DNA of 64,000 nucleotides from Candidatus Oxydemutatoraceae bacterium (GCA_965220085.1 CBDCOZ010000003.1:896001-960000), one strand, 5' to 3'. Shown: positions 19,654 to 38,177, counted from the stretch's first letter. The notes: generated by a model from the sequence alone, not told the origin. Made by a program: numbers and translations.

Positions 19654-19844
19654 GAATCATGCCGGAAACATTGCGGACTGCCGGCAACAGCGCGAGTTGT
19701 CATGGATGATGCCGGAAACATTCCGGCGGCAACAACACAAGTTGTCATGAGTGATGCCGGAGACATTGCGGGTTGCCGGCAGCAGCGCGAGTTGTCATGA
19801 ATGATGCCGGAGACATTGCGGCGGCATCAACACAAATTGTCATG
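19654..19844 (+). repeat. Short non-coding repeat family (alternating 50/45-bp units, core ATGCCGGA(A/G)ACATT...TTGTCATG), 4 units; further copies at about 22367-22465, 23191-23207 and 23518-23565
   Basis: ATGCCGG at 19659, 19709, 19754 and 19804. Confidence 0.85.
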
Positions 19845-19918
19845 GCATCCTGCGCCGAATTGAGCGTTGCGCAACATTGTGCTATGATGACCGCATTGAT
19901 TCGTTGGGAGTATTTGAT

Positions 19919-20581
19919 ATGACTGCTATGACTGCCATGACCGCGCCACAACGCCTGCTTCGCTGGCTTGTTGTCGCCTGCATTGTGGGTGCGCTGGCGC
20001 TGGCGTTGCCGGTAGTTTGGGATCTCATAGCGCCGGCCGGCGCCGCCACGCCGAGCGCACAGCAAGCCTCCGGAGCGGGCGCAACACAAGCGGGCGCACA
20101 GGCCGGCCTGAGCCTCTGGCAGGCGCTGTCCATAATGGGAGCCGGTTTTGCCTTGATTATGAGCGCCCTCGTGGGCACATGGATATGGCTAGATGCCAGA
20201 CTTGAACGCATGGAAGCCAGGTTTGACGACAGGTTCAAGGAAGCGGATGCCAAGGCGGATGCCAGATTTGAGCGCATGGAAGACAAGCTTGAACGCATGG
20301 AAGCCAAGTTTGACGACAGGTTCAAGGAAGTGGATGCCAGATTTGAACGCATGGAAGCCAAATTTGACGACAAGTTCAAGGAAGTGGATGCCAGGTTTGA
20401 ACGCATGGAAGCCAAATTTAACGACAGGTTCAAGGAAGTGGATGCCAGATTTGAGCGCATGGAAGCCAAGTTTGAGCGCATGGATGACAAGTTGAATGCC
20501 ATCATCATGCATCTGGCAGGTGTCAAGCGGGGCGGCGATACGCTGCGCCTTCAGGATCAACGCCCCGATGAAGCGTTGTAA
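19919..20581 (+). CDS. Membrane-anchored coiled-coil repeat protein, copy 1
   Basis: GGGAG RBS; two hydrophobic segments, then 18-aa repeats ARFERMEAKF(D/N)DRFKEVD. Confidence 0.75.
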   Translation: MTAMTAMTAPQRLLRWLVVACIVGALALALPVVWDLIAPAGAATPSAQQASGAGATQAGAQAGLSLWQALSIMGAGFALIMSALVGTWIWLDARLERMEARFDDRFKEADAKADARFERMEDKLERMEAKFDDRFKEVDARFERMEAKFDDKFKEVDARFERMEAKFNDRFKEVDARFERMEAKFERMDDKLNAIIMHLAGVKRGGDTLRLQDQRPDEAL

Positions 20582-20658
20582 TGAGACGAAAGGCGGAGTG
20601 GCCAAGACACTTGCAAACTGCTAGCCAATTTATACGGGCCGCCGCCAGAAGGGATGCC

Positions 20659-21342
20659 ATGAGCCGACAATTTTTAATATCTCTCCCCTATGCGCATTCA
20701 TTTTTGCGGCAGGTTTGCGCGGCGCTAATACTCGCTTGCGCCTTCGCCGCGGACAGCGCCCAAGCGCAGACCGAATGCCCCGAAGGGCAAACGCGCCTCA
20801 CGAAAGTAATTGGCGTTGGCGTTGCCGATGATACCGGTTGCGTTGCCGATGACGCGGCGGAGAATTCTGCGGGATGTGAGGGCAAGGGCGGGCCATATTC
20901 GCATAGCCGGTTTGATGACCGGTTTAACTTCGCTATCGGCGTCCGTCGTGGTAACGGTCGCTGCCGAGTTCTTTGTGAAGTTGGTGATGCAAGTTTTCCC
21001 GCCAAGATAGAGCAAGCGCTCGCCGACAACGGCTCCGAGTTCTGCGGCGCGTTTGATCGCTGCCTGCAAGAGCAAGGTATCCGCCACTGCCACACGTATC
21101 CGAAATGCCCGAAGATGAATGCGCTCAAGGAACGCTTTAACCGCGCGCTTCAGGAAGAATCTGCGGAGTTTGAAGAGGGCTTGTTGCGGACCGATATACG
21201 GGAATTCAATAATCGTCGGATAAAGTATCTGCTATGGTTTAATACCCAACGACCACACTATGGGCTGGAACTTCAAGCGTCTATGACGCCCACAATATTT
21301 GCTCAAGTTTCCAATATGTCATGGCATCCTGCGCCGAATTGA
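20659..21342 (+). pseudogene. Chimeric ORF: signal peptide of a secreted protein fused to a degenerate IS transposase C-terminus
   Basis: N-terminus ...ALILACAFAADSAQAQ; C-terminal part DNGSEF...HTYPKCPKMNALKERFNR...WFNTQRPH. Confidence 0.7.
20890..21300 (+). mobile_element. IS481/IS3-like (rve integrase core) transposase remnant
   Basis: DNGSEF, P..N...ERFNR, (Y/F)N..RPH motifs of DDE integrase cores; left boundary approximate; more decayed copies at about 23396-23500 and 26395-26465. Confidence 0.75.
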
Positions 21343-22129
21343 GCGTTGCGCAACATTGTGCTATGATGACCGCATTGATTCGTTGGGAGTATTTGATATG
21401 ACTGCTATGACTGCCATGACCGCGCCACAACACCTGCTTCGCTGGCTTGTTGTCGCCTGCATTGTGGGTGCGCTGGCGCTGGCGTTGCCGGTAGTTTGGG
21501 ATCTCATAGCGCCGGCCGGCGCCGCCACGCCGAGCGCACAGCAAGCCTCCGGAGCGGGCGCAACACAAGCGGCCGCACAGACCGGCCTGAGCCTCTGGCA
21601 GGCGCTGTCCATAATGGGAGCCGGTTTTGCCTTGATTATGAGCGCCCTCGTGGGCACATGGATATGGCTAGATGCCAGATTTGGACGCATGGAAGCCAGG
21701 TTTGACGACAGGTTCAAGGAAGCGGATGCCAAGGCGGATGCCAGATTTGAGCGCATGGAAGACAAGCTTGAACGCATGGAAGCCAAGTTTGACGACAGGT
21801 TCAAGGAAGTGGATGCCAGGTTTGAACGCATGGAAGCCAAATTTAACGACAGGTTCAAGGAAGTGGAAGCCAAGTTTGAGCGCATGGATGACAAGTTGAA
21901 TGCCATCATCATGCATCTGGCAGGTGTCAAGCAAGGTGGCGATACGCTGCGCCTTCAGGATCAACGCCCCGATGAAGCGTTGTAATGAGACGAAAGGCGG
22001 AGTGGCCAAGACACTTGCAAACTGCTAGCCAATTTATACGGGCCGCCGCCAGAAGGAATGCCATGAGCCGACAATTTTTAATACCCCTCCCCTATGCGCA
22101 TTCATTTTTGCGGCAGGTTTGCGCGGCGC
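21317..22129 (+). repeat. Direct duplication of about 19838-20725 (coiled-coil gene and start of the next gene)
   Basis: Near-identical from TGTCATGGCATCCTGCGCCGAATTG (offset 1479 at the left end); differs by a few SNPs and 75 nt of coiled-coil repeats. Confidence 0.93.
21398..21985 (+). CDS. Membrane-anchored coiled-coil repeat protein, copy 2 (25 aa shorter)
   Basis: Paralog of 19919-20581 with fewer repeats. Confidence 0.75.
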   Translation: MTAMTAMTAPQHLLRWLVVACIVGALALALPVVWDLIAPAGAATPSAQQASGAGATQAAAQTGLSLWQALSIMGAGFALIMSALVGTWIWLDARFGRMEARFDDRFKEADAKADARFERMEDKLERMEAKFDDRFKEVDARFERMEAKFNDRFKEVEAKFERMDDKLNAIIMHLAGVKQGGDTLRLQDQRPDEAL

Positions 22130-22135
22130 CAGAGC

Positions 22136-22364
22136 TCGCTTGCGCCACATTTGCCGACAACTGATTGCGCACGGCATGTCCGAAACAACGCCGGCCGCAT
22201 TGGTGGTCCGCGGAACATTGCCGGCTCAGCGCGTTTTGAAGGGGCAGGTATCCGACATCCATGCGTTGACCAAAGACAGCGGGATTACCCCTCCGACATT
22301 GCTGATTGTCGGAGAAGTGGTCGGACTGCGAGACAGTTTGCGGTGGTATCAGCCCGACGACTGA
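22136..22364 (+). pseudogene. Diverged duplicate of the cobA 3' end
   Basis: RLRHICRQLIAHGMSETTPAALVVRGTLP...LRDSLRWYQPDD matches 19423-19651 with scattered substitutions. Confidence 0.9.
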
Positions 22365-22558
22365 ACGAATCATGCCGGAAACATTGCGGACTGCCGGCAG
22401 CAGCGCGAGTTGTCATGAGCGATGCCGGAAACATTCCGGACTGCCGGCATCAGCGCGAGTTGCCGCCATAGCAACACATCGGCTCGGCATCATCCGCGCT
22501 TAAATCCAAGGGCAAGGGCCGTTGCGGGTTTCTAAGTTTTAGCTCAGCCCATCGTGTT

Positions 22559-23070: not shown

Positions 23071-23593
23071 GTTTTCCTTTTCGCTTGCTTTGCGGGCAAG
23101 TCCATCGCCTCTCATGCGACAAGGCAAATGCGCGGGCATCAAGCCTTGCGGGGCGCCGCAGGGAGAACCTCTCCGCCCCAAGCAAAACATGAATCATGCC
23201 AGAAACACGAACGGCAGGAAGCGGAGCCGGGCCTGCGTTTGCGCCTTTTCCTTGAAGCCCCCCGCAATCATGCGAGCGCCCTGCGACGGAGAAAGGGAGT
23301 ATTATGGGGCGCGCGCAAGGAAGGCAGTGGGTCTGGCTTCCCAGGTTTTGCCTTTTGGTCATTATGGGGCGCGCGCAAGGAAGGCAGGGATACGCATGAA
23401 TGCATTCAATGAACGCTTATCGCCTATTCGGGAAGGATTCGCGGAGTTTGAAGCGGGTTTGTTGATGACGACCTGCGGACATTTAATGGTTGTCTGGTAG
23501 ACTATGCCTGTTATGGCGAATCATACCGGAAACATTTCGGACTGTCGGCATCAGCACGAGCTGTTGCAATATCAACACAGGAGGATTAGATCT

Positions 23594-26323
23594 GTGAATA
23601 TTGTCAATCCCATCACTGAGTTTGCCGGGCGCGGTCTCTGGCTATTGGCATTGTCGGCTCTGCTGGCATCGCTCGCCCTGAGCGCTCCGGCTCAGGCCCA
23701 GAACCAGCCCGCCACCGGCATGCCCGGCATCCAATACGAAACGGGCATAACGCGCCCCACCGATGATTCCAGGATATTCGGCACCATGGGCACCATGGCC
23801 GATGAAGATGGCCTCACCATAAGCAACATAGACAGAGACATGACCTGGCGATGGAGCGTGGCCGACACGCACAACGGCACCTACACCGCCCATCCCAACA
23901 CCACCTCACCATTCCGGATGCGGCGCTTCATCCCCGCAGATGCCGATGTGGGCAAGTTTCTGCAGGTCTGCGCATCCTTCAGGGACGATGCCGGCAACAA
24001 CGAGGAGCTATGCAGGCGGATAAGCATGAGTGTGCTGGATGTGGACGACCCGGCCCAAGTGGGAGGGGCACATGAGGGCTTCATAGAAGTGTTTGTGACC
24101 GCGACTGCCGCCAAACCCTACGTCTTCAATGAGGACGATTTGGTATTCATTGATAACGACGGTGACACTGTGACAGGCTTCCGCATAATCACTCTTCCCA
24201 GCGCTGGCACCCTCAGGCTCAACGGTATGCCCACAGGGGGATCCTGTGAGGATCCATTTGTGGAAGTATCCAGGGCCAATATAGGCACCCTCACCTATTT
24301 TCCGGCGGCGGGTCAATCGCCAACCAAGAGCGGCTCATATGCCTTTTTCGCCGTTCAGGCGCTTAGCAGCGGGGCCGATTACAACGACCCTTGCATAATG
24401 CATAACCATACCCTGAATCAAATCTCGATAAGATTGGTTACAGACCCCGACTCCGCCACCGGCGAGCCCGCGGTCACATATGCAAGCGGCATAAATGCCC
24501 CCACTGAGGATAGCCCCATCACCGCCAATCAAGGCAGCATAATGGATACCAACAATGACCCGCCCACCGCTCTGGGCGACATCAGATGGCAATGGAGCCA
24601 GGCGGATGGGCGCGACGGCGCCTATGCCGACATAACCGGCGCAACCGATGCCGCATTCACCCCGGGCGATAATCAGGTCGGCAAGTTCCTGCGGGTCTGC
24701 GCATCGTTCACCGACGAAGACGACAACGACGAGGAGCGATGCCTGCGGATAGAGGATGCGGTTGTCAATATCAATGATGACCCCACCGGCGCCGTCAGCA
24801 TCGGCGGCATCGGCGGTAGCATTGTGAGCGAGCACGAGGAGCTCAGCGTAGCCGGCAACATTGACGATGCCGATGGCTTCGACCCAGCGAATGTAACGTA
24901 TCAATGGCAGCAGGTCGCCAGCCCCTCGACGCCCACCGCCGATGCGGCCTGGGCCGACATCGCGGGCGCCGAGTCACGGACATTCGCTTCGGACCACGCC
25001 CAGGTGGGGCATCATCTGCGCGCCTGTGTGCTGTACACCGACAATCAGGGCACCGCCGAACGGGTGTGCAGCGGGTCCATCGGGCCCATCGTCAATGCGA
25101 ACGATGCGCCGGTTGCCGCCGCCGCCACCGTGTCGGTGTCCGTCGCTGCCAGCGCCGAGGACCCCTATCGCTTCAGCGTCTCGGACTTTCGATTCGACGA
25201 TGAGGATGGGGACGCTCTTGAGAGCGTAACTTTTGTGTCCCTCCCCGCTGTCGGCGGCCTGCTGGTGGGCGAGAGCGCCGCCGACATCGGTCAGATGGTG
25301 AACCGGGCCGACATTCCCACCATCGGCTACTATCCGGCGGACAACCAGAGCCCCAACCCCAACTATGCCAGTTTCAGATTCAACGTGACCGACGATGGCG
25401 ACGGCCCCGGCGGCGACGACACCGATGCCGCCCGCACCAGTAACGCTGCCACCATCACCATCAGCCTGGTATCCGCCGAGCCGATGCCTGCCACCGGTAA
25501 TCCTGCCATAACCGGCGGCCCGGCGCGACAGGGCGCGGCGCTGAGCGCCGGGCTCGGCACAGTGAAAGATGTCAACGGCATAGACACCGACACCATAATG
25601 TGGCGGTGGCAGGCCGTCAGCCCCTCAACATCCACCGGCACCGAGGAATGGGACGACATACCGGGCGCGACCAATGACGCATTTACTCCGGGACAGGCCC
25701 AGGTGGGCATGCATCTGCGCGTCTGCATCAGATTCATGGACAACCACAGCGCCCCCGCCAACGAGGGCCCGCTGTGCTCCGCCGCCACTGACCCGGTTGT
25801 CAATGTCAACGATGCCCCGGTGGCGACGGATGACACATACACAGTCGATATAGCGCCGGGCACTCCGTTGCTCACAGACTTCCGGTTCATAATCCCCCCT
25901 CAGGCCTTTCGGGCTGCCTACGACGATGCGGACGGCGATCGGCTGGCATCGGTCACCATCACCAAACTGCCGCCCGGCGAGCACGGCGGCCTGCTCGAAG
26001 GGTCAGATCCCGCTGGCACCATGAATACTCAGATCTTAGCCGACTCCAACAACGCACCCATCCGCCCCGCTGTGTTTCGGGTATCTGAGGACGGCGAGCA
26101 GTTTGTGGATGATGACGGCAGACCCCGCTTTCTCCATTTCTCCGCCAGCCTGTTGTTCCTCTCCAGCGAAGCCGGGTTCGTCACCGATGAAACCACTTTC
26201 AAATTCACCCTCAGCGATGGCGCCCTGAGCAGCAACGAGGCCACCCTGACCATCAGACTGGTGACTCTCCAATCTGGTTTGCGCTTGCGGTTGCGCCTGT
26301 TCTTGGAAGGCCCGTTGCGATAA
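23594..26323 (+). CDS. Secreted Ig/cadherin-like repeat protein 3 with C-terminal LRLRLRLFLEGPLR tag
   Basis: GGAGG RBS, GTG 23594, signal peptide ...LALSAPAQAQ; about 7 repeat domains of the same two types; ends GLRLRLRLFLEGPLR. Confidence 0.85.
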   Translation: MNIVNPITEFAGRGLWLLALSALLASLALSAPAQAQNQPATGMPGIQYETGITRPTDDSRIFGTMGTMADEDGLTISNIDRDMTWRWSVADTHNGTYTAHPNTTSPFRMRRFIPADADVGKFLQVCASFRDDAGNNEELCRRISMSVLDVDDPAQVGGAHEGFIEVFVTATAAKPYVFNEDDLVFIDNDGDTVTGFRIITLPSAGTLRLNGMPTGGSCEDPFVEVSRANIGTLTYFPAAGQSPTKSGSYAFFAVQALSSGADYNDPCIMHNHTLNQISIRLVTDPDSATGEPAVTYASGINAPTEDSPITANQGSIMDTNNDPPTALGDIRWQWSQADGRDGAYADITGATDAAFTPGDNQVGKFLRVCASFTDEDDNDEERCLRIEDAVVNINDDPTGAVSIGGIGGSIVSEHEELSVAGNIDDADGFDPANVTYQWQQVASPSTPTADAAWADIAGAESRTFASDHAQVGHHLRACVLYTDNQGTAERVCSGSIGPIVNANDAPVAAAATVSVSVAASAEDPYRFSVSDFRFDDEDGDALESVTFVSLPAVGGLLVGESAADIGQMVNRADIPTIGYYPADNQSPNPNYASFRFNVTDDGDGPGGDDTDAARTSNAATITISLVSAEPMPATGNPAITGGPARQGAALSAGLGTVKDVNGIDTDTIMWRWQAVSPSTSTGTEEWDDIPGATNDAFTPGQAQVGMHLRVCIRFMDNHSAPANEGPLCSAATDPVVNVNDAPVATDDTYTVDIAPGTPLLTDFRFIIPPQAFRAAYDDADGDRLASVTITKLPPGEHGGLLEGSDPAGTMNTQILADSNNAPIRPAVFRVSEDGEQFVDDDGRPRFLHFSASLLFLSSEAGFVTDETTFKFTLSDGALSSNEATLTIRLVTLQSGLRLRLRLFLEGPLR

Positions 26324-28088: not shown

Positions 28089-28165
28089 GCGCCCGTAGCT
28101 CAGTTGGATAGAGTACCTGGCTACGAACCAGGCGGTCGGAGGTTCGAATCCTTCCGGGCGCGCCA
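28089..28165 (+). tRNA. tRNA-Arg(ACG)
   Basis: GCGCCCG acceptor, AGCTCAGTTGGATAGAG D-arm, CCTGG-CT-ACG-AA-CCAGG, GGTTCGAATCC, CCA end. Confidence 0.96.
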
Positions 28166-28202
28166 GCAGATTGGAAAGATCGGGAATGCCGCGGGTCGCA
28201 AT

Positions 28203-28961
28203 ATGAGCATGAAGTTTTTTTTCACTCTGATCATCGTATCGATCGCCGGCTTCGCTCTGGCCGGCGATGCCTTTGACGATGCGTCGCGCGTGACGCGCGA
28301 TAGCTTGCGCGAATCCGCGGACTCACAGCTTTATATCAATGATTTGGATGACGAGACCGGGCGTTTGCTGGCGGAGTATCAAACGTTGCGCAAACAAAAT
28401 GCGGCGCTCTCGACATATGTCGAGCGGATGCAAACTTTGGTCGTCGATCAGAGACGGTCGCTGGACGCCCTGCGACAATCCATTGCGCGCGCCGGCAATA
28501 TCCGGCGCAGCGTGTTGCCGCTCGCCCACGAGATGGCCGGGGCTTTGCGAGAATTTGTGGCCGGGGACATGCCGTTTCGGCGACAACAGAGGCTCGAGGC
28601 CATCGACGATCTGCGCGTGATGCTGGATGATGCGGGCATCTCCGCCGCGCTCAAGTTCCAGCGTGTGCTGGAGATGTATGAGATCGAGCATGGCTACGGG
28701 CGGACGGCGGGAGTCTGGCGCGCGGCGGCGCCCGGCGGCGGCGATCAATTGGTCGATTTCTTGCGCATCGGTCGCAGCGCGCTGATATATCGCTATCCGG
28801 ATAAGAACAAAGCGATGGTCTGGAACAAGTCAAAAGAAGCATGGCAGCCGCTCGCCGACGAGTATGACCGTTATGTCCGGCGCGCGATGAGAATCGCGCG
28901 CCGCAATGCGGCGCCCGACTTGCTTGTCTTGCCGATGTTGCCGCCGCAGGCGGTCGAATAA
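28203..28961 (+). CDS. DUF3450-type periplasmic protein of TonB2/3 systems (TtpB-like)
   Basis: Signal peptide, coiled coil, DMPF..RL, EIEHGYGR, VDFLRIGR; first gene of the ttpC-exbB-exbD-tonB-TPR cluster. Confidence 0.8.
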   Translation: MSMKFFFTLIIVSIAGFALAGDAFDDASRVTRDSLRESADSQLYINDLDDETGRLLAEYQTLRKQNAALSTYVERMQTLVVDQRRSLDALRQSIARAGNIRRSVLPLAHEMAGALREFVAGDMPFRRQQRLEAIDDLRVMLDDAGISAALKFQRVLEMYEIEHGYGRTAGVWRAAAPGGGDQLVDFLRIGRSALIYRYPDKNKAMVWNKSKEAWQPLADEYDRYVRRAMRIARRNAAPDLLVLPMLPPQAVE

Positions 28962-28963
28962 CG

Positions 28964-30313
28964 ATGATGTGCCGCGGCTTGTTTTTTGTTTTGTTCGCGC
29001 TGTGGTGCGCGGGCAGCGGCGCAGAAGATGCTTTGTCGGACCGGGCCGAGGCGGAAGCCGCCGCCAATGCGCGCATCGATGACGAACGAGAGCGCGAGTT
29101 TCTCCGACGCAAGGAGCGACAGGCCGAGACCTTGTCGCGCGAGCGGGAAACATTTGAGCGGCTGACCGCGCAGAGCGAAGAGTTGGAAGCGGAATTTGAA
29201 ACGAATCGCGCCAAATTAGCCGAGCTGGAGACCATTTACCGCCAGCGGGCCGGCGATTCCACCGAGGTCTTTGCGTTGGTCAGGCGCGGCGGCGCGGAAT
29301 TCAAAGCGAGTTTGGCCGAGTCGTTCATCGGCCTGTTGGCGGTCGATTGGCAACAGCGTATCGATGCGATCACCGACAAGGAGGAGGTGTTTGACGCGCA
29401 AAAGACGCGCGATTTCGGGCGGCTGATGCTTGAGGTGATGGCCTTGCAATCCGGCAGTTATCAAAAGCCGACGGACATCATACGCGCCGATGGGCGGGTG
29501 GAAACACGTCAGGCAGTGTTCGTGGGCGAGTTCAGCGCGATGGCCGACGGGCAATTCCTGAAGTATTTGCCGAATAACGGAATTCCGGCAATCGTGCCGC
29601 GTCAGCCGGCGGCGCGTTACCTCTCTGTCGCCGCCGAGCTCGCCGCGGGCACAGCGGTCGATGAGAACGGGTTTGTTGCCACGCCGATCGATGTGTCGCG
29701 CGGGACGATATTTTCTATTCTGGAGCAGTCGCCGAATATCATAGAGCGGGTCGGGCAGGGCGGTGTGATCGCGGCAGTGATTTTGATTCTGGGCGCGATT
29801 GGTTTTGCGCTGGTTATCGAGCGCTTGTTTGTGTTGGTACGCACCGAGAGGGCGGTGTCCGCGCAAAAGGATAATGCTGTCTGGTCGGATGACAATCCGC
29901 TCGGGCGGCTGATGAATGCCTGCAAAGGGACGGAGCTTGCCGACTGCGAGGAGATGGAGTTGCGTTTGCACGATGCGGTATTGCGAGAAACGCAGATGTT
30001 GGAGCGGGGGTTTGGCATCATCAAGGCGCTGGCTTCTATCGCTCCGCTGCTTGGCTTGCTCGGTACCGTGGTCGGAATGATAGAGACTTTTCAGGCGATC
30101 ACCCTGTTTGGCGCCGGTGACGCGCGGGTGATGGCCGGCGGCATCAGTCAGGCTCTGGTCACGACGATGCTGGGTCTGGGGGCGGCGATTCCGTTGCTGT
30201 TGCTCTATGTGATTGCGACCGGTCGCAGCCGCCGGATTCGTCAGATATTGGAACAGCAGAGCGCCGGCGTTCTGGTCGCGAGAATTTTGCCGAAAGCGGG
30301 GGACAAAGCGTGA
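28964..30313 (+). CDS. Large MotA/TolQ/ExbB family protein (TtpC-like)
   Basis: Long periplasmic N-terminus, APLLGLLGTVVGMIETF, GGISQALVTTMLGL. Confidence 0.88.
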   Translation: MMCRGLFFVLFALWCAGSGAEDALSDRAEAEAAANARIDDEREREFLRRKERQAETLSRERETFERLTAQSEELEAEFETNRAKLAELETIYRQRAGDSTEVFALVRRGGAEFKASLAESFIGLLAVDWQQRIDAITDKEEVFDAQKTRDFGRLMLEVMALQSGSYQKPTDIIRADGRVETRQAVFVGEFSAMADGQFLKYLPNNGIPAIVPRQPAARYLSVAAELAAGTAVDENGFVATPIDVSRGTIFSILEQSPNIIERVGQGGVIAAVILILGAIGFALVIERLFVLVRTERAVSAQKDNAVWSDDNPLGRLMNACKGTELADCEEMELRLHDAVLRETQMLERGFGIIKALASIAPLLGLLGTVVGMIETFQAITLFGAGDARVMAGGISQALVTTMLGLGAAIPLLLLYVIATGRSRRIRQILEQQSAGVLVARILPKAGDKA

Positions 30314-30894
30314 TGGCCGGCGATATATTTGCGCTATTGGTGTGGCCGATTGAAGAGTTGATCGACTTGGGCGGCGCGGTGTTGTTGCCGATCATGCTGG
30401 CGACCTTCGTCATGTGGGCGCTGATCAGCGAGCGTTATTGGTATCTCACTTCAACCTGTTGCCGGCTCTATGACGATTGCCTGAAAGCCGGCGAGCGGAT
30501 GAGGGCCGCTTGCTCTGAGCGGCCGATTGCCGCCCTGCGGATGCGGCGGATTTCCGAATTTCGCTTATCGGCGGCGCGCGGGCTTGAGATCATACAGAGT
30601 TTGGTACGGGCGAACATCCTGTTGGGTTTGTTTGGCACGGTGCTCGGCATGATAGAGGTGTTTGACGGTCTTGCCAGCAGCGGCGTAGGCGATGCGCGCG
30701 TTGTCACCGATGGCATCTTCAAAGCGATTATCCCGACGCTGGCGGGAATGGTCGCGTCTTTGTCGGGCTTTGTGTTTTCGATTGACTTGAAGCGTCGTTT
30801 TAGGGCGGTGACCGAACGGTTTGCGATGGATTTATACGGGCGAACGCATGTTGCGGGCGGCGGGAGCGCGGCGCCGACGGGGGCCGGGGCTTGA
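30310..30894 (+). CDS. exbB: ExbB proton channel
   Basis: LLGLFGTVLGMIEVF, GIFKAIIPTLAGM; GTGA overlap. Confidence 0.85.
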   Translation: MMAGDIFALLVWPIEELIDLGGAVLLPIMLATFVMWALISERYWYLTSTCCRLYDDCLKAGERMRAACSERPIAALRMRRISEFRLSAARGLEIIQSLVRANILLGLFGTVLGMIEVFDGLASSGVGDARVVTDGIFKAIIPTLAGMVASLSGFVFSIDLKRRFRAVTERFAMDLYGRTHVAGGGSAAPTGAGA

Positions 30895-30895
30895 T

Positions 30896-31306
30896 ATGAG
30901 AAAACGATACGGCCAAGACGAGCGCGACGACGATCTGGACATCAACATGACCCCGATGTTGGATGTGATATTTATCCTGCTTATATTTTTTGTCGTCAGC
31001 GCATCCTTTGTCAAAGAAGCCGGCATCGCGGTCGATCGCCCGCAGTCCGACACGGCGGTGCGGCAGGATCAGGTCTCCGTCGTTGTCGCCATCAGCAGCG
31101 ATGGCGAGGTGTGGGTCAATCAGCGTCGTATCGACGCGCGCGCGGTCGCCGCCAATGTGGAACGCTTGCATCTGGAAAATCCGCAACTCTCGGTATTGGT
31201 GATGGCCGATCGCGCATCACAAAACGGCGTTCTGGTGAAAGTGTTGGACGGCATTCGCAAAGCCGGCGTTGAGAAGATTGCAATCGTCGCGAACCATGAC
31301 AGTTAG
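30896..31306 (+). CDS. exbD: ExbD
   Basis: INMTPMLDVIFILLIFFVVSASF with conserved TM Asp. Confidence 0.92.
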   Translation: MRKRYGQDERDDDLDINMTPMLDVIFILLIFFVVSASFVKEAGIAVDRPQSDTAVRQDQVSVVVAISSDGEVWVNQRRIDARAVAANVERLHLENPQLSVLVMADRASQNGVLVKVLDGIRKAGVEKIAIVANHDS

Positions 31307-31910
31307 ACATGCGGCGGCCTATCCGCTGCTGTTAGCGGTCGCGCTGTTGATCACCTGGTCTTTGTTTTTTCTGGTGTACCGGCTGACGGTATTTGAGGGG
31401 GCGGCGGAAGTCGGGGAGCCCAAGGTGTTTCCGATAGATTTTGTGGAAGTCGCCCGCGAATTGCCGGAAGAGCCCGAGCCGTTGCCGGAAAAACCCAAAC
31501 CGCAGGCGGCGCGACCGCAGATTCCGTCTATACAAAAATTTTCGCCGCCGATTCAACCGGCCCATCTGAGCGCCGATGGCGCGCTATTGTCAAACTTGAC
31601 CGGCTTGTTGACCGGATTGCCGGAGCCGGGTATCGGCGGCGAAGCGACTCCTATAGTCCGTGTCAGCCCGATTTACCCGGTATCCGCGGCGAGCCGGGGG
31701 GTTGAGGGGCGGGTCAGAATAGTGTTTGCCATCAACGAAGAAGGTTGGGTAGAGTCGCCCGAGGTGATCGAGTCCGAGCCCAGCGCGATTTTTAACCGTT
31801 CCGCCTTGCGCGCCGTTTCAAAGTGGCGCTATCGTCCGCAGATCACAGACGGTCGGGCGCAACGCCGCGAGGGGGTTGAGGTGATCATTGAATTTCGTTT
31901 GGATCAATGA
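31296..31910 (+). CDS. tonB: TonB energy transducer
   Basis: N-terminal TM, Pro-rich linker, PIYPVSAASRGVEGRV...KWRYRP C-terminal domain. Confidence 0.9.
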   Translation: MTVRHAAAYPLLLAVALLITWSLFFLVYRLTVFEGAAEVGEPKVFPIDFVEVARELPEEPEPLPEKPKPQAARPQIPSIQKFSPPIQPAHLSADGALLSNLTGLLTGLPEPGIGGEATPIVRVSPIYPVSAASRGVEGRVRIVFAINEEGWVESPEVIESEPSAIFNRSALRAVSKWRYRPQITDGRAQRREGVEVIIEFRLDQ

Positions 31911-33130
31911 TGACTGCTAGATCGGCTTGTCGGTTTTGCCGCATTGCTTCCGCCTTGGCGTTGCTCGTGTGCTCGCCAACTGTATTCGCGGCGCCGACCT
32001 ATCTGATTTCCCAACAGGTTTATGACGCGATTGACAAAAGCGGCGCGCATATTGAAAAAGGCGAGTACGCCGAAGCCGAAAGGATATTGAACGGCGCGCA
32101 CAAGCGCAAAGGTCAGGAGTTGAATGCATACGAAAAGGCCGTTATCTCTCAGCAACTCGCGGCGATAGACTTTGAACGCGAGGACTATCAATCGGCGCGA
32201 CTGCGGTTTGAGAAGTTTTTGCGCGAGGACGGTTTGCCGCGGCCGTTTTTGTCGCAGTTGCGCTTCAATCTCGCTCAGACGTATATGTTGCTTGAGCGCG
32301 ATGCCGATGCGGTTGCATTGTTGCGCCCGCTGTTTGAGGGCGATGCGCCGCCGCCGGCCGCTTTTTTTCTGGCTGCTGTCGCGTTGCGCAATATCGGCGA
32401 TACCGAAGAGGCATTGCGGCGTGCCGAGCGCGGCTTGGCGTTGGTCGCCGTACCCGATGAAACGCACTATGCGACGGCGCTTTCGCTCTATCTCGCATTG
32501 GAGGATTATCGGAATGCCGGGCAAATATTGGAACAGCTCCTCAGGAGATATCCCGACAAGGCGATGTATTGGCGGCAAGCGGCACAGGTGGCGATCCGTT
32601 TGGATGATCGCGCGCGCGCGCTGACGCTCGGCGATATGGGCTATCACCGCGGGGCGTTGCGCGAGGAAGAAGATGTGCTGTATCTTGTCAAGTTATACCT
32701 TGACCAGGGGGTGCCGCATAGGGCGGCGCGCCTTTTGAGCAAAGCGCTCGCTGACGGGGTCGTCGCAGAAACGGGCGATAACTGGTATTTGCTTTCGCTG
32801 GCGTGGAGCGATGCGCGGGAATTTGATCGCGCGATTGAGCCGTTGCGCAAGGCCGCGGAATTGTCCGACCACGGCCGCTTTTATAGCCGCCTCGGCAGAC
32901 TCTATATGGAGCAACGGCGGTGGGATGATGCCAGACAGATGTTCGCCTACGCGCTCGACAAAGGCGCGCTCAAGCAGGCGCACAAAACGCGCCTGCTGAA
33001 AGGCATCGCGTTAGTCGAATTGGGACGCATCGAGGAAGCCGAGCAAGAATTCACATACTGTCTTTCGCACCCGGACACCTACGAAGAGGCGGCCGGTTGG
33101 CTGACCTTCCTCGGCGCCGCTTCGCGCTGA
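31907..33130 (+). CDS. TPR repeat protein of TonB2-type cluster (TtpD-like)
   Basis: Signal peptide, helical TPR-like repeats, GVPHRAARLL, C-terminal A.GWL.FL. Confidence 0.8.
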   Translation: MMTARSACRFCRIASALALLVCSPTVFAAPTYLISQQVYDAIDKSGAHIEKGEYAEAERILNGAHKRKGQELNAYEKAVISQQLAAIDFEREDYQSARLRFEKFLREDGLPRPFLSQLRFNLAQTYMLLERDADAVALLRPLFEGDAPPPAAFFLAAVALRNIGDTEEALRRAERGLALVAVPDETHYATALSLYLALEDYRNAGQILEQLLRRYPDKAMYWRQAAQVAIRLDDRARALTLGDMGYHRGALREEEDVLYLVKLYLDQGVPHRAARLLSKALADGVVAETGDNWYLLSLAWSDAREFDRAIEPLRKAAELSDHGRFYSRLGRLYMEQRRWDDARQMFAYALDKGALKQAHKTRLLKGIALVELGRIEEAEQEFTYCLSHPDTYEEAAGWLTFLGAASR

Positions 33131-33136
33131 CACCGG

Positions 33137-34720
33137 TCATAGGTCAAAGACGACGCGGAATCCGATCTGCGGCGAGCGCAATGACAAGGGTATGCGGTTC
33201 TCAAAATCAATCCGCGCCGCGTCTTTTCCGGGCAAGGCATAGTTTCCTCCTTTGACCAGCGCCACATAGTGATCGTCCGCCGCGATGATGCTGCGCGTCC
33301 ATTCGGACACATTGCCGCCCATGTCATAGATGCCGCTTTCGGTCTTGTCCTTTCTGTCGGGGTTTTGTTGCTGTGGCGCCGTGCGCTTGCTCTCGGCCGC
33401 GATGGCGTATCGTCGGCGCGGCTGATTGCCCCACGGGTAGACGCTTCTTGCGCTGTTGGAGCCGGCGATCATCCATTCCTCCGCCGAAGGCAGCCGCCCG
33501 CCGGCCCAATTTGCAAACGCCCACGCCGACCACCAACTGATGCCCGTAATCGGCAAGACATCGTTGGCATCGGGTGTGTCGCTCCAGTCGTCGGGCGCAT
33601 AGCGGTGGCTCTTCGGCTCTTTCTCGTTCGCATACAGACCGATTCGCACAAGCGGGTCGGCGAGAAAGTTTCTATACTGCGCGCGCGTGACCTCGTGGCG
33701 CAAGATGCGAAAGTCCGTTTTTTGTCGGGTTTGATTGAAGAGCGATTCGATCACCGCGACCTTTTGCCCGGAGAGGTTGGCCAGCAGCGCGGGTATGCGC
33801 GCGCCTTCGCGCAGCCCGATGCGGATCGTGTCGGTCGCAATCCGGCGGGTTTGCGGGGGCTTGTCCCCCCAGGGCAAGCGGTCGGGTCTGCGGTCGTAAA
33901 CACAGCGAAAACCGACATACGGGGAGCGGTATTTGCGCGGGGCGTAACGGTAGAAAGCGGCCAGACTGTATATCGCAAACGGGCGGTTATATGCGTTGCC
34001 CCCGTGCAGGCTGGGCCGGCTGTCATCGTTGTCGCCGTCGGCCCACTCGGAAACCGCATCGCCCATGTTATGGATTCCGCTCGGGGTATCGGCGGCGGCA
34101 TGCAGTCCGCATTTTTGCGCGGCGTTCAAACGGCTGTCGAGGTACGGCCAGGCATCGGATACGAATGTGTCTCCCCACGGGTAGAGTCGCTGTTGCTTGC
34201 CGGCGGCGATGGCTATCCATTCCGATTGCCGCGGCAGGCGCCCGCCGCTCGCTTTGCAATATGCGTAGGCGTCGTAGTAACTCACGCCGTTGGCCGGCGC
34301 TTGCAAGCGCCCGCTGACCTTGTGCTCGGCGCTGCTACTCCTGTATTTCCAGTCCGCCGGTTGTCCCGGCGCGGCGATGTCCGCTTGGGGATGGCGTTGT
34401 TGCCATTTGACAAATTTGTAGAAATCGCTTTGTCGCACTTCGCAGCGATCGACCCATGCGGTATTGAGGCGGTAATCAAACGGCGGTTTGTCGAGCAGGT
34501 GGTCAAAAGAGCGTATGTGCTTGAAGTGTCGGATGTTTTCCAGAAGAATCTCGTCAAGGGCGTTGCTCGCGTCGGCGATGTCTTCGGTGTCTGTGCGGAT
34601 CGTGACGGTGTCAAAATCATGCAACGCGGCGGACAGTTTGTAGATGCCAAGAGCGGTGCCGGTGACAACGATAACGACGAGGAAGGAGTTGACGAACTTT
34701 GTAAGGAAACGAAACCGCAT
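33137..34720 (-). CDS. Membrane-anchored protein with two FGE-sulfatase (SUMF1/EgtB/PvdO-like) domains
   Basis: Twice: EV...Y..F, (G/S)(V/I)S..(D/S)A.A(Y/F), GGRLP...EW, YPWG, (N/D)MG..VSEW, GFR.V; N-terminal TM. Confidence 0.85.
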   Translation of the reverse strand: MRFRFLTKFVNSFLVVIVVTGTALGIYKLSAALHDFDTVTIRTDTEDIADASNALDEILLENIRHFKHIRSFDHLLDKPPFDYRLNTAWVDRCEVRQSDFYKFVKWQQRHPQADIAAPGQPADWKYRSSSAEHKVSGRLQAPANGVSYYDAYAYCKASGGRLPRQSEWIAIAAGKQQRLYPWGDTFVSDAWPYLDSRLNAAQKCGLHAAADTPSGIHNMGDAVSEWADGDNDDSRPSLHGGNAYNRPFAIYSLAAFYRYAPRKYRSPYVGFRCVYDRRPDRLPWGDKPPQTRRIATDTIRIGLREGARIPALLANLSGQKVAVIESLFNQTRQKTDFRILRHEVTRAQYRNFLADPLVRIGLYANEKEPKSHRYAPDDWSDTPDANDVLPITGISWWSAWAFANWAGGRLPSAEEWMIAGSNSARSVYPWGNQPRRRYAIAAESKRTAPQQQNPDRKDKTESGIYDMGGNVSEWTRSIIAADDHYVALVKGGNYALPGKDAARIDFENRIPLSLRSPQIGFRVVFDL

Positions 34721-34724
34721 CGCG

Positions 34725-36464
34725 TTACGCTACGCGCCGGAAACGGCGCAGTATTCCGAATAACAGGATCAGCGCGACCGCTCCGAATACAAAAAACGAT
34801 TCCTTTTCTTTGCGGAACGGAATCGGCGGATGAAATGTGTATGTGTGGAGTTGGTTTATTTGCACGCCATTTTCATCGCTGGCGATGACAAACTCGCCGT
34901 CGTCGGCAAAATGCCCGTAGACAAACGACAGCACGTAATCGCCGCGTTTCGGGCTGCTCAAACTGGCCGCGCGCCAACGGTCTTCGGCGGGGGCGATGGT
35001 ATCCGGCGGAATCATCAATATGTGCGATTGGTTGATCGGCGCGGACAACCCTTTGTATATCGCCGGAAAGAGACCGAACCGCATCTGCGCATGCGCTTCT
35101 GCGGGCAGAAAATCCAGCCTGACTTGATCCGGTGTGCCGAGAAAAGAAGCCGTTTTCAGCGGCTTGTTCGCCGCCACCTTCAAGGCGTTGTTGGCGAAGT
35201 CGGGCGATATGTTTTGGTCGACTTCCAAAGCCTTGGGCTCGCCGGGCATCGCCAGCAGACCTTTGACCAGATCGGCAAAGAAAGTCAGCGCAACCGGGTC
35301 GGTCGGCGGCGGGGTGGTCAATGCCGGCACGACGATGTCACGCTGAAAGTGGAAGCGTTCCAAGACAGAATAGTCGCCCGCTTGCGCCGCTAAGTCCGCT
35401 CGCTCCATGAAATTGTACAGAGCGAACATCAAACTCAGATAGCTCACTTCGGGTTGGCGACCGGGGCGCCCTTGCATCTCCAGTATTTGTTGCAACTTTT
35501 CTTGCAACGACTTTTGCGCAGACGGCGTGGCGGCGCGAAATTGCACGATACTGGGCAAGCCGCCGCGCGCGGGTTCTCTTGCGAGGTCGCCGGACATCAT
35601 TTGAGCAAGCGTTTCAAACATCCGATCGCTGAGTCTTGATTCTTGGCTCTCGCTGTCCGTCCGCCGTTCGCTTTGCGCGCCCGGGCCGAAGGCTTCTTGA
35701 TCCTGCGATTGCGACAGTTCGGTATCGTAGGCGAGATCGTCAAAAGGATATTGTTCGTTGGCATCGGACACATCTAGTTCGACCTCGCCGGGGAAGGACT
35801 CCCACATGCGCTCGGCGCTCTCGTTGCCGCCGTCGCGATCGCTCTGACTTTCTCCCGGCAGGCGGGTCTCGTCTTCTTCTTCGGGTTTCTCCTTGTTTTC
35901 CGCGCCTTGGGCGAGTTGTTCGGGGCTGTCGTCGTCGCCGCCTTTCCGCTCGTCCAGAAAATGCCAGTGCGAGGGCAGTCGCCCGTACTTGCGGATGATC
36001 GACATCGTGACATAGAACAACTGTATGTCATAGACATCTATGCGTATGCGGCGATGCTGTTGCGGCGACAAGGTTCGCAGGAAGCGGTCAAAGGCATTTT
36101 CTTGAAGCAACAGCGTGTCGCGCCCAAAGCGTTTGCCGGTGTGGTAATCGCGTATAAACCCTTTGTGCAACTCAATGATGGGCATGATATCCGGGCGCGG
36201 GTTGCGGTCGAGCGGGGAGTTTTCATAGTCGTGCAGACGCGCCAGAGCCGACGTCGGCAGGCTGTTCATAACGACCGAGGTCGCTATGTCACGGCTCAAT
36301 AAAACCGAGACCTCTTCGTATTCGGTCAGTTGTTCCTGTTCCTTCTGGTGCTTGATAGAGATGGTGATGACGATCAGGATGATGATCATCGCCACGCTGT
36401 TGGCAAGGATGTCCGCCAGCCCTATGCCGGCGAATTCGGGCAAAAAAGACGGTTTCTTTTTCAT
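34725..36464 (-). CDS. Hypothetical membrane protein, N-terminal TM with Asp (MotB/ExbD-like) and C-terminal TM
   Basis: GIGLADILANSVAMIIILIVITISI; acidic low-complexity linker; FFVFGAVALILLFGILRRFRR; ATGA overlap. Confidence 0.75.
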   Translation of the reverse strand: MKKKPSFLPEFAGIGLADILANSVAMIIILIVITISIKHQKEQEQLTEYEEVSVLLSRDIATSVVMNSLPTSALARLHDYENSPLDRNPRPDIMPIIELHKGFIRDYHTGKRFGRDTLLLQENAFDRFLRTLSPQQHRRIRIDVYDIQLFYVTMSIIRKYGRLPSHWHFLDERKGGDDDSPEQLAQGAENKEKPEEEDETRLPGESQSDRDGGNESAERMWESFPGEVELDVSDANEQYPFDDLAYDTELSQSQDQEAFGPGAQSERRTDSESQESRLSDRMFETLAQMMSGDLAREPARGGLPSIVQFRAATPSAQKSLQEKLQQILEMQGRPGRQPEVSYLSLMFALYNFMERADLAAQAGDYSVLERFHFQRDIVVPALTTPPPTDPVALTFFADLVKGLLAMPGEPKALEVDQNISPDFANNALKVAANKPLKTASFLGTPDQVRLDFLPAEAHAQMRFGLFPAIYKGLSAPINQSHILMIPPDTIAPAEDRWRAASLSSPKRGDYVLSFVYGHFADDGEFVIASDENGVQINQLHTYTFHPPIPFRKEKESFFVFGAVALILLFGILRRFRRVA

Positions 36465-36985
36465 CGCCCCCCGGCGCGATCTTTAATCACATCGCTGATG
36501 TACGGCGGTATGTCGTTGAGGCTTACCGATTTCAACAACTCGCGTTCGGCGATGATCCAGCCGATCGCTATCCGTCGGTTCGGCAGCGCACGTCGGATGC
36601 AGTTGCGCGCTTTTGCCATGACCGGAACGCTTTCTTCGGTGATGGTGAAGATCATCTGTTGCTTGGGTTGGCTGTAAATCTTTTTTGCATAAGCGACAAA
36701 GGGATCGTTGGGTTTGCAGATATCGTCATATTTGACTGTCTCGTTCGTTTCAACGATACGCAGTTCGGACGGAAACGTGATGATCGCATAGCCGCTGCCG
36801 CGCGCGCCCCAGCTGACTTTGTAATCGCCGCCGTCGTTGATTTCTTCAAGCCGCTCCCGGATGGACGCTTGTGAGAAGAGGTTGATTAATAAGAATAGCA
36901 CAAGCAAGAGGGCGAATACGCCGCCGAAGATCTCAATCATCGGCGCGTTGTTGCGTTCGCTATCGCGCAGACTATCGTGACGCAT
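36461..36985 (-). CDS. Hypothetical single-pass membrane protein, ExbD/MotB-like TM with Glu
   Basis: NNAPMIEIFGGVFALLLVLFLLINLF; overlaps neighbours on both sides. Confidence 0.72.
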   Translation of the reverse strand: MRHDSLRDSERNNAPMIEIFGGVFALLLVLFLLINLFSQASIRERLEEINDGGDYKVSWGARGSGYAIITFPSELRIVETNETVKYDDICKPNDPFVAYAKKIYSQPKQQMIFTITEESVPVMAKARNCIRRALPNRRIAIGWIIAERELLKSVSLNDIPPYISDVIKDRAGGR

Positions 36986-38021
36986 TAAAGTTCGGTTTGT
37001 TCGGATGGAGAATGTGATTTTCGCAGGCAGTCAGAATATCATTCTCCCATCTTTGTAATATCGTTTGTATCAGGGTGAGGATGATGCTGAGCGACAATGC
37101 GATCAGCGTCGTATCAAACGCGATGCCAAGCGGCGATATGGCGCCGCTCAGTTCGTCCGATAACTGCGTCAGTCCGTGCTGGCTGCCGATAATCTTTTGA
37201 ATCCCGTCGGCGGCGAGCGATATCCCGTACACGGTGCCGATAAAACCGAGAATCGGTATCGCCCAGTTGAGGTAGCGCGGCAGGATGTAGAAATCGGCCG
37301 ATTTTTTCCATATCAAATCTATGTAAATATCCGGCGTCCCGGCGCGTTCCTCCACGATGGCTTCGTGGTATGCCCGCAGCAGCAAGGAGCGCTTTTCTTG
37401 TGCCAGCGACATCTTTTCGCGCAACAGGATATAGCTCTTGCTGGCCAGAATCACCAGCCCCCAGCAGAATAGCGCCACCGTCAGCGGCGGTATGATGCCG
37501 CGCTCAAGAAACTTTTCGGTGAAGAAGGCCCAATCCGGATAGCGCGCGTCGAGGTTGTGTATTGCGATCATGATATAGGTCGCAACAATGACCGCGACCG
37601 CCAGTGTCAATAGCAACGGCGGTCCAAAGAGCACTGATTCGACCCGATGCATGAGACTTTGACCGCTGTTGTTTGATGCGATGCGATTGAGCAGAATGTA
37701 GAACATATACAATGCGACCGTTGTGACCAGCAACGGCAACAGGCTCTCGACAGAAAACGATTTTCCGTCTAACAGCGGCGCCGAGATTTGATAGGCGACG
37801 ATAAAACTGATGACGATGATCACTATCAGGATGGTCGCTTCAAACAAGCGGGGCGTGAATAACTGTTTGTTCAATGCGCTTGCCAACATCGGCAATGCGG
37901 CAACCGCGGCGCCGAATAGCAGGCCGGATAGGATGCTGTGGTCAATCGCGTGGAAGAGGCTGGCAAATAGGGTCGGCAATAGCGCCGCCCACAGAGTAAG
38001 TATAATCATTTTGTGCAACAT
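36972..38021 (-). CDS. MotA/TolQ/ExbB proton-channel family protein with extra N-terminal TM helices
   Basis: AIPILGFIGTVYGISLA and LGIAFDTTLIALSLSIIL match the two conserved channel helices. Confidence 0.8.
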   Translation of the reverse strand: MLHKMIILTLWAALLPTLFASLFHAIDHSILSGLLFGAAVAALPMLASALNKQLFTPRLFEATILIVIIVISFIVAYQISAPLLDGKSFSVESLLPLLVTTVALYMFYILLNRIASNNSGQSLMHRVESVLFGPPLLLTLAVAVIVATYIMIAIHNLDARYPDWAFFTEKFLERGIIPPLTVALFCWGLVILASKSYILLREKMSLAQEKRSLLLRAYHEAIVEERAGTPDIYIDLIWKKSADFYILPRYLNWAIPILGFIGTVYGISLAADGIQKIIGSQHGLTQLSDELSGAISPLGIAFDTTLIALSLSIILTLIQTILQRWENDILTACENHILHPNKPNFNASR

Positions 38022-38177
38022 AGTTCGGTTATTTGTATTTTGCGTATGAAGGATTCTTATTATACTTCACAATGTTGCGGCGCAGCGCGGCGGCTATTGT
38101 GAATGGCCTTCGTCCGAGTGTTGCCGGAGTTTGTGGGAAACCTAATCGGAGGTTGCGGCGTCTTGAGGCGATCGGTT

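Follow-up and report, generated by a model that had tools for sequence, protein, structure and literature searches.

A 64,000-nucleotide (nt) stretch of DNA from a Candidatus Oxydemutatoraceae bacterium (GCA_965220085.1, CBDCOZ010000003.1:896001-960000; here called the window, with positions counted from its first nucleotide) contains, on the minus strand between positions 33137 and 38021, a cassette of four genes that appears from its sequence to be an undescribed relative of the ion-driven motors built on ExbB, TolQ, or MotA. The genes, here termed A to D, are open reading frames (ORFs) of 349 amino acids (aa) (A, 36972-38021), 174 aa (B, 36461-36985), 579 aa (C, 34725-36464), and 527 aa (D, 33137-34720). 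The overlap is 14 nt between A and B and 4 nt between B and C, whereas C and D are separated by 4 nt. These coordinates confirm the four tightly coupled minus-strand genes that were described in an initial annotation of the locus, and the motifs that it quoted from B, C, and the ExbD protein of the window are all present. By Kyte-Doolittle hydropathy, A has 8 hydrophobic segments, B has 1 (residues 19-37), C has 2 (19-37 and 557-575), and D has 1 (9-27). As had also been noted, no OmpA, TonB, or TolA domain is found among the Pfam matches of A to D.

A profile of A homologues has 581 relatives in species-representative genomes. The best 80 loci were examined, and their gene content was established by BLASTP comparison of A to D from the window with every ORF in them. 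The genes A, B, C, and D occur in the same order and on the same strand in 53 of the 80 loci, so the arrangement does not arise by chance, and the operon proposed in the initial annotation is conserved across genomes. The other 27 loci comprise three that are cut by contig ends (L022, L037, and L038), three that carry A only, and 21 (L060-L080) in which a distant A-like gene has other partners. Beside the cassette, no other neighbor family is conserved, the most frequent one being present in 8 of the 53 loci. The gene msrA flanks the cassette in L001-L005, L007-L009, and L012, and a tetratricopeptide-repeat (TPR) gene does so in eight of these (not L004), such that the cassette lies between msrA and TPR-TonB genes, as in the window, in up to nine close relatives of the Oxydemutatoraceae type. 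Neither A nor C matches anything in plasmid or phage collections, and a plasmid or phage origin of the cassette was rejected on this ground. The cassette is a self-contained, chromosomal, and stable unit whose four genes travel together.

Judging by record titles, the full cassettes are carried by Ca. Oxydemutator, Oxydemutatoraceae, Porisulfidus, Spongiihabitans, Poriferihabitaceae, and Azotimanducaceae, by Methylococcales symbionts of the sponges Hymedesmia and Iophon, by Thioalkalivibrio sp. HK1, and by the cultured Vibrio thalassae CECT8203 (L058). The hosts are Gammaproteobacteria, and most are sponge symbionts. This distribution suggests a role in envelope or surface remodeling that is useful to sponge-associated bacteria, and a quick tree of A gives a hint that the cassette might be exchanged horizontally among such bacteria or symbionts. 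In a Stylissa sponge, the dominant symbionts are reported to include Oxydemutator and Spongiihabitans (PMC11685487). The tree of A (54 rows) has long branches, and the labels of its metagenome-assembled genomes (MAGs) are uncertain. Within it, the rows labeled Azotimanducaceae split into two clades, and a MAG labeled Myxococcota (L023) is nested in a gammaproteobacterial clade.

Protein A is, on the strength of its sequence, a divergent member of the MotA/ExbB/TolQ family, in which a C-terminal core of three membrane helices is placed behind five extra N-terminal membrane helices. The core (residues 165-336; 37014..37529, minus strand) aligns by BLASTP with the A-like protein of a Parabeggiatoa locus (L065; E 8e-21, 30% identity). 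In this core, a short cytoplasmic segment separates one membrane helix from two others, which carry LGFIGTVxG, including Thr263, and AFDTT. The Pfam MotA_ExbB profile (PF01618) is matched by 11 of 18 A homologues (E<=0.01; best E 2.7e-5) and, with 44 and 44.6 bits, by the A-like proteins of L065 and L067. Moreover, L-G-x-x-G-T-V-x-G and A-x-x-x-T in the last two helices are invariant across the A family, its relatives in the Planctomycetes-Verrucomicrobia-Chlamydiae (PVC) group, and the two canonical ExbB-like proteins of the window. The matches of the homologues, the link through L065, and the shared helix motifs make the homology of A to MotA_ExbB secure, and they uphold the earlier description of A as MotA/ExbB-like with additional N-terminal helices. 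Among the 120 A homologues listed, a precomputed PF01618 match is present only in P0099, and NCBI names P0118-P0120 as MotA/TolQ/ExbB family proteins. The L065 protein matched no PDB chain, and hhalign of the A profile with the single ExbB sequence of the window gave an uninformative probability of 4%.

Residues 303-305 of A (Asp303, Thr304, and Thr305 of AFDTT; 37107-37115, minus strand) lie in the last membrane helix. Asp303 is invariant in the A family and the PVC relatives, whereas the canonical ExbB-like proteins of the window have V or P at this position, and the residue may be part of an ion path. The AlphaFold2 (AF2) model of A is all-helical, with 11 helices and a predicted local distance difference test (pLDDT) score of 82. 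Because the protein ends approximately 27 residues after its last membrane helix, at residue 349, it has no long tail of the ZorA type, in agreement with the initial annotation. By analogy with its relatives, A is presumed to be the ion-conducting ring subunit in the inner membrane.

Protein C carries the motif GIGLADILANSV as well as a C-terminal hydrophobic helix. Asp18 (codon 36411..36413, minus strand) is located within L-x-D-I-L-A-N, at the end of the first membrane helix that faces the cytoplasm, and is Asp in 54 of 54 homologues. Residues L16, D18, L20, A21, and N22 are invariant in both C alignments, and Asp18 is retained in the distant homologues P0250, P0253, P0256, and P0234, which are as distant as E 8e-5. 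We take this position to be the one at which ExbD, TolR, and MotB carry their ion-binding Asp. C therefore has the functional feature of a B-type subunit, an N-terminal membrane helix with a conserved acid at its cytoplasmic end, and the Asp-bearing helix and second C-terminal helix reported earlier are both borne out.

The remainder of C is divided into four regions. Residues 90-170 (35955..36197, minus strand) form a small alpha/beta periplasmic domain (AF2 pLDDT approximately 87-92) whose elements are, in order, three strands, three short helices (115-118, 124-131, and 134-138), a strand, a helix, and a strand. It contains the conserved block PIIELH...R.R.DVY...HWHF, and neither ExbD nor TolR is among the Foldseek matches listed for this domain. 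Residues 175-300 (35565..35942, minus strand) are an acidic linker predicted to be disordered, with pLDDT <50 over 175-272 and 289-299, and the alignment is gappy and variable here. Residues 300-552 (34809..35567, minus strand) form an alpha+beta periplasmic domain (pLDDT mostly 83-95) that has no Foldseek match in PDB at E<=0.001 and no match in the ESM Atlas. The C-terminal membrane helix assigned by hydropathy (557-575; 34740..34796, minus strand) corresponds to an AF2 helix at 553-578, is followed by the basic sequence RRFRRVA, and is kept as a hydrophobic segment in homologues. The AF2 model of the whole protein (pLDDT 71) has a long N-terminal helix. Approximately 510 periplasmic residues lie between the two end helices. 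With both ends in the inner membrane, C would form a large periplasmic loop.

No credible match to C exists in Pfam, NCBIfam, or PADLOC, and the protein contains neither a TonB_C nor a TolA domain. A profile of its N-terminal 180 residues retrieved only 138 proteins from 1.84 billion representatives, nearly all of 500-640 aa. All 8 named homologues are called 'hypothetical protein', and a Pfam domain is recorded in none of the 120 listed. With hhalign, the C profile aligned to the single ExbD of the window with an uninformative probability of 0.4%, and to B with D18 opposite E18 at a probability of only 7.5%. By analogy, C is presumed to be both the ion-carrying axle and the transmitter of force. 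One protein, P0162 (1118 aa), is a natural C-D fusion in which the C-terminal helix of C runs directly into the anchor helix of D, an arrangement that is topologically compatible. P0162 could be a real fusion or the product of a lost stop codon. A further protein, P0172, was set aside because it looks like a frameshifted B/C read-through.

Protein B consists of a single membrane pass and a periplasmic domain of approximately 130 aa, and it carries the motif NNAPMIEIFGGVFALLL. Its P-M-x-E-I-F resembles P-M-L-D-V-I in the canonical ExbD of the window, which has TPMLDVIFILL. Glu18 (codon 36932..36934, minus strand) occupies the position at which ExbD has Asp, and it is not conserved. B has no match in Pfam, NCBIfam, PADLOC, or PDB, and a search of the ESM Atlas returned only unnamed 'hypothetical' clusters. 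Its orthologues in V. thalassae, Thioalkalivibrio sp. HK1, and Ca. Spongiihabitans are likewise annotated 'hypothetical protein'. The hhalign probability for the B profile and the single ExbD of the window, at 8.8%, is uninformative.

The 21 distant loci belong to Akkermansiaceae and other Verrucomicrobiota, Planctomycetes, Kiritimatiellae, Lentisphaeria, and Ca. Parabeggiatoa; examples of the distant cassette are found at positions 7818-13699 of L067 and 7848-13502 of L065. Their A-like proteins often carry an N-terminal zinc ribbon. In 18 of the 21, the A-like gene is followed by a gene for a single-pass protein with SLFPF[ML]xI[LI], where x is S (15 loci), D (2 loci), or A (1 locus). A second single-pass protein could be identified in 16 of the loci, and all 16 have Asp, within LDSLMDxxTN. 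The pattern D-x-L-x-N is common to this second partner and C, and hhalign aligned the N-terminus of C to the second protein of the PVC relatives with a probability of 41% (E 2.8e-4), compared with <10% for the other pairings. A degenerate-site partner followed by an invariant-Asp partner thus recurs across phyla, which is the best support for two unlike B-type subunits, and the sequences suggest that one of the two alone carries the ion. The proteins encoded farther downstream differ: the distant loci have beta-propellers (Ldl_recept_b, PQQ_2) or Sel1-repeat proteins where the window family has the FGE-like D. The distant cassette of PVC bacteria, Planctomycetes, and Parabeggiatoa likewise appears to be uncharacterized.

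Protein D matches the Pfam FGE-sulfatase family (PF03781; FGE, formylglycine-generating enzyme) over two stretches with E 2.2e-48 and has the FGE fold. The better stretch is the second domain (residues 329-524; 33149..33736, minus strand), which contains no cysteine. The closest PDB relative is SUMF2 (1y4j, E 1.1e-12), which matches both domains, and SUMF1 and bacterial FGEs also match. D has four cysteines, all in the first domain (93, 155, 204, and 273), and those at 155 and 273 are present in 54 of 54 homologues. The catalytic Cys pair of FGE presumably sits toward the C-terminus of the domain, between the GG and GFR motifs, and neither domain of D has a Cys in that interval. D was rejected as a catalytic FGE for lack of this pair, and the initial description of a double FGE-sulfatase protein without the catalytic Cys is sustained. 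Because the first Cys is at residue 93 and an anchor helix (residues 9-27) precedes it, D has no lipoprotein signal. Among NCBIfam models, SenA (E 2.8e-17) and EgtB (E 4.8e-17) score 62-63 bits against cut-offs of 360-420, and both matches cover only the shared FGE-fold part. The models for GldK (TIGR03525; E 2.2e-5, 24 bits, cut-off 350) and GldJ (TIGR03524; E 0.006, 15 bits, cut-off 458) score lower. No DinB-type iron-binding domain was found in the Pfam scan. These features indicate that D is probably a membrane-anchored, non-catalytic, double FGE-fold protein, and by analogy it is presumed to be a ligand-binding output module.

We favor, with a little better than even confidence, a reading in which the four proteins make up an uncharacterized ion-driven motor of the cell envelope. 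The ion would be carried by C as the axle, B would be a second, degenerate subunit of the B type or an accessory, and D would be the output that binds a ligand. In such a motor, A would oligomerize into a ring, assumed by analogy to be a pentamer. Ions would flow at the interface of A and C by way of Asp18 of C and Thr263, Asp303, and Thr305 of A, and this flow would move C relative to A. B might pair with C as an asymmetric axle (5:1:1) that has a single ion-carrying residue, or might dock as an accessory subunit. C would relay its movement through the small domain, the acidic linker of approximately 125 aa, and the C-terminal domain of approximately 250 aa to D, whose FGE/lectin-like domains would bind a ligand in the envelope or outside the cell. 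Because C is anchored at both ends, a limited stroke or a cycle of tension seems likelier than free rotation.

Several results weigh against the motor proposal. The match of A itself to MotA_ExbB is weak (17 bits, E 0.005) and falls below the gathering cut-off of 22.9. The A profile finds no PDB chain by sequence, and the corresponding profile searches of PDB with B and C were empty. A Foldseek search of PDB with the monomer model of A gave nothing at E<=0.001, and so lends no structural support to a ring-and-axle assembly; the best non-significant matches were ZorA (8vvn_D; probability 0.93, template-modeling score TMt 0.37) and TolQ chains, at E of approximately 0.5. The model of C also gave nothing in PDB at E<=0.001. 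The Pfam ExbD profile (PF02472) matched 0 of 24 N-termini of B and 0 of 26 N-termini of C even at E<=10, and the search of the 1.84 billion representatives with the N-terminus of C produced no bridge to ExbD or TolR outside its own small family. The likeness of B and C to ExbD and TolR that had been suggested initially therefore does not extend to homology detectable by Pfam, PDB, hhalign, or the representative searches, and 'B subunit' denotes here an analogy of architecture rather than membership in a family.

Residue 18 of B is a further difficulty. Among 56 homologues, this residue is E (32), A (22), or S (2), and never Asp. On the tree of A, the residue has undergone at least two changes, with one clade of 20 rows having Ala and another of 3 rows having Ser or Ala. 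Conservation of the acidic membrane residues, on which the initial annotation made its proposal depend, holds for C but not for B: with Ala or Ser in 24 of the 56 homologues, B cannot be an obligatory ion carrier, and the data do not call for an axle of two B subunits. Site 313 of D co-varies with the loss of this Glu, probably for phylogenetic reasons, and no position in A or C does so. The initial proposal of two different B subunits accordingly stands in part: the same two-partner pattern exists in distant relatives, but the Glu of B is not conserved, and the class is assigned by architecture only. In addition, A occurs without B, C, or D in L017, L021, and L059 (by tblastn, with at least 8 kb downstream covered). 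These loci may be remnants or split systems. The matches in L017 and L021 start at residue 82 of A. The C-D fusion P0162 is a singleton (1 member, on one contig of 266,804 bp), and no longer fused form of C turned up in a dedicated search, a result that carries little weight. Finally, the results give no indication of the output or of the coupling ion.

A bolder version of the motor proposal, which we put forward tentatively, is that the family is an unrecognized branch of 5:2-type motors with an intrinsically asymmetric axle. A ring that has an invariant Asp of its own would enclose two unlike single-pass subunits, of which one bears Asp. In the gammaproteobacterial form, the motor would tension the two-anchor protein C and a double lectin-like FGE module, and it would be shared among unrelated sponge symbionts as a factor for association with the host. 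Because only one subunit bears Asp (C, or the second protein in the PVC relatives), such a motor would run on a single carrier residue.

The main rival to these proposals, which we consider rather unlikely, is a layout like that of the Tol and Ton systems. Here, B would be a dimeric axle of the ExbD/TolR type in the A ring, and C would be a peripheral transducer of the TolA/TonB type that reaches D, which in turn replaces TolB. The order of genes, in which a ring gene is followed by those for a small single-pass protein, a long single-pass protein with a disordered linker and C-terminal domain, and a periplasmic protein, mirrors tolQ-tolR-tolA-tolB and exbB-exbD-tonB. Moreover, the downstream partners in the Akkermansiaceae relatives are beta-propellers, as is TolB, and the resemblance of the P-M-x-E-I-F of B to the motif of the window ExbD fits equally. 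However, the acidic residue of the axle is essential in the Ton, Tol, and Mot motors, yet at this position B has Ala or Ser in 24 of 56 homologues, whereas the Asp of C is invariant. The helices of TolA and TonB carry a His/Ser motif and not Asp. C also lacks the TonB_C and TolA domains and has a second membrane anchor, which is absent from TolA and TonB. This layout is disfavored because C is the protein that keeps the acid.

An anti-phage defense system like Zorya, in which the motor senses a perturbation of the envelope and D detects the invader, is improbable. Such a function is suggested by weak ZorA matches of A (NCBIfam NF033915, E 0.017; PADLOC, E 0.0024-0.008) and by the position of ZorA 8vvn_D as the Foldseek match of highest probability, at E 0.5. 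Also, FGE-like proteins are found in contexts of conflict, examples being immunity proteins of type VI secretion systems and TagR (PMC13713981). However, the NF033915 match is 14 bits against a cut-off of 100, and B, C, and D have no PADLOC match. The long tail is missing from A, and the Pfam scan of the cassette revealed neither a nuclease nor any other effector. Within the symbiont family, the locus keeps its synteny amid housekeeping genes, in addition to the lack of plasmid and phage matches for A and C. The related idea that the cassette belongs to a defense island was rejected, given the stable chromosomal locus among housekeeping genes.

It is also quite improbable that the cassette is not a motor and that D is an enzyme of the FGE/EgtB/SenA type that acts on a periplasmic substrate, with A, B, and C as a membrane scaffold or transporter. 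SenA and EgtB are the best NCBIfam matches of D, and sulfate activation is encoded in the window by an ATP-sulfurylase/adenosine 5'-phosphosulfate kinase gene (60820-62481). Set against this, the two scores are far below their cut-offs, the FGE Cys pair and a DinB-type iron-binding domain are both absent, and the closest solved relative, SUMF2, is non-catalytic.

An apparatus like that of type IX secretion (T9SS) or gliding, with A, C, and D in the places of GldL/PorL, GldM/PorM, and GldK/PorK, is very unlikely: D matches GldK and GldJ weakly and C is a long periplasmic protein on an N-terminal helix, but D resembles EgtB, SenA, and SUMF2 more closely and is membrane anchored without a lipoprotein signal, A has 8 helices and the ExbB-type GTV motif whereas GldL has two helices, the hosts are Gammaproteobacteria, and neither PorN nor Sov nor any further T9SS gene is conserved near the cassette. 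Membership in T9SS was rejected on the low GldK and GldJ scores and the lack of conserved T9SS genes nearby, so that the parallel with GldK drawn in the initial annotation is at most one of function. In T9SS, the PorLM motor operates together with PorK/GldK, in which an FGE fold has been repurposed (PMC12421860, PMC12365241).

The cassette is directly adjoined by a canonical Ton-type cluster on the plus strand (28104-33127), which encodes a DUF3450 protein, two MotA_ExbB proteins (449 aa and 194 aa), ExbD, a TonB_C protein, and a TPR protein, and which resembles the TonB2/Ttp arrangement of Vibrio. This cluster is downstream of the cassette and convergent with it, with 6 nt between the stop codons. 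Given its presence, A-B-C-D is an additional system and not the Ton motor of the cell. The cluster is distinct from the cassette, and the scores for ZorA, GldK, and GldJ (NCBIfam, PADLOC) are far below their cut-offs, results that agree with the earlier view of the operon as separate from characterized systems.

On the other side of the cassette, the hexamer TATAAT (38059..38064, minus strand), which was read from the sequence, lies 37 nt 5' of the A start within the 81-nt gap to the divergent msrA, and it is a possible candidate for a -10 element. A scan for promoters and terminators did not call this TATAAT, and the number of sites it found was no higher than in shuffles.

The rest of the 64-kb window is ordinary chromosome, with rimM, trmD, moaA, leuA, mutL, miaA, glnS, dnaE, lpxB, and other genes. 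A tandem duplication of approximately 1.4-1.5 kb is present at 19654-22461, and each copy includes a gene for a membrane protein (19877-20578 and 21299-21982). Identity between the copies is 85%, and the number of internal 54-nt (18-aa) repeats varies between them. An ORF resembling rve_3 integrases (20581-21339) is located between the duplicated membrane-protein genes, and 95-nt repeats flank the region. Weak immunoglobulin (Ig)-like matches (Big_9 and SCAB-Ig) occur in two large proteins (13441-15021, minus strand, 527 aa; 23504-26320, plus strand, 939 aa), which may be surface or adhesin-like proteins.

To our knowledge, the known 5:2 motors (Mot, Exb, Tol, GldLM, and Zor) all have a homodimeric axle with two identical ion-binding residues, and accounts of how they work generally assume this symmetry. 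The family studied here spans Gammaproteobacteria, PVC bacteria, Planctomycetes, and Parabeggiatoa, and consists of a ring gene with two unlike partners, one of which keeps Asp. It could thus be a natural test of whether one carrier residue suffices. If the proposed motor is correct, it adds a fourth kind of motor output, a non-catalytic FGE-fold protein, outside Bacteroidota. Because its carriers are sponge-symbiont lineages, the cassette may mark an envelope function that is relevant to symbiosis, and the cultured carrier V. thalassae CECT8203 makes it approachable by experiment. In openly searchable papers, searches that paired FGE-sulfatase or formylglycine with MotA, ExbB, TolQ, or ExbD revealed no description of such a cassette, and the co-mention of 'FGE-sulfatase' and 'MotA' was merely the author name Motaung. 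Neither 'sulfatase' nor 'FGE' occurs in the text of a survey of MotAB relatives published in mBio in 2025 (PMC12505986).

The cassette is most readily compared with ExbB-ExbD(-TonB) and TolQ-TolR(-TolA). Like these systems, it has tightly coupled genes for a ring protein, a small partner, and a long partner; A has the PF01618 core with LG..GTV.G and A...T; and the partners have a single-pass N-terminal helix with an acidic residue at its cytoplasmic end. In contrast to them, A has five extra N-terminal helices, a shorter cytoplasmic segment, and an invariant Asp303 borne by the ring. The invariant Asp of the partners is on the long protein instead of the short one, C has an anchor at each end, and TonB_C, TolA, TolB, and Pal are all missing.

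In the gliding motor of Myxococcus, AglR-AglQ-AglS, a TolQ-like ring protein has two different TolR-like single-pass partners. When compared by description only, this motor shares with the cassette the combination of one ring protein and two different single-pass partners. However, B lacks the acid in approximately 43% of homologues, C is a 579-aa protein with two anchors, and the cassette has no partners of the Glt type. Zorya ZorAB resembles the cassette as a non-flagellar ring of the MotA/ExbB family, and the profile and fold matches of A to ZorA are weak. Unlike Zorya, the cassette has no long ZorA tail, peptidoglycan-binding ZorB, or ZorC, ZorD, or ZorE effectors, and it is not located in a defense island.

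The GldLM/PorLM motors with GldK/PorK also unite an ion-driven motor of the inner membrane with a catalytically dead periplasmic partner of the FGE fold (PMC12421860, PMC12365241). D differs from GldK in that it is anchored in the inner membrane and has two FGE domains, A is of the ExbB type and not the GldL type, and the cassette is not accompanied by other T9SS genes. The FGE fold without catalytic cysteines is a feature that D has in common with SUMF2/pFGE, other non-catalytic proteins of this fold, and TagR, the last being described as a periplasmic signaling protein of the FGE superfamily (PMC13713981). In contrast to SUMF2 and TagR, D is composed of tandem domains, is anchored in the membrane, and is always encoded with a cassette of the MotA/ExbB type.

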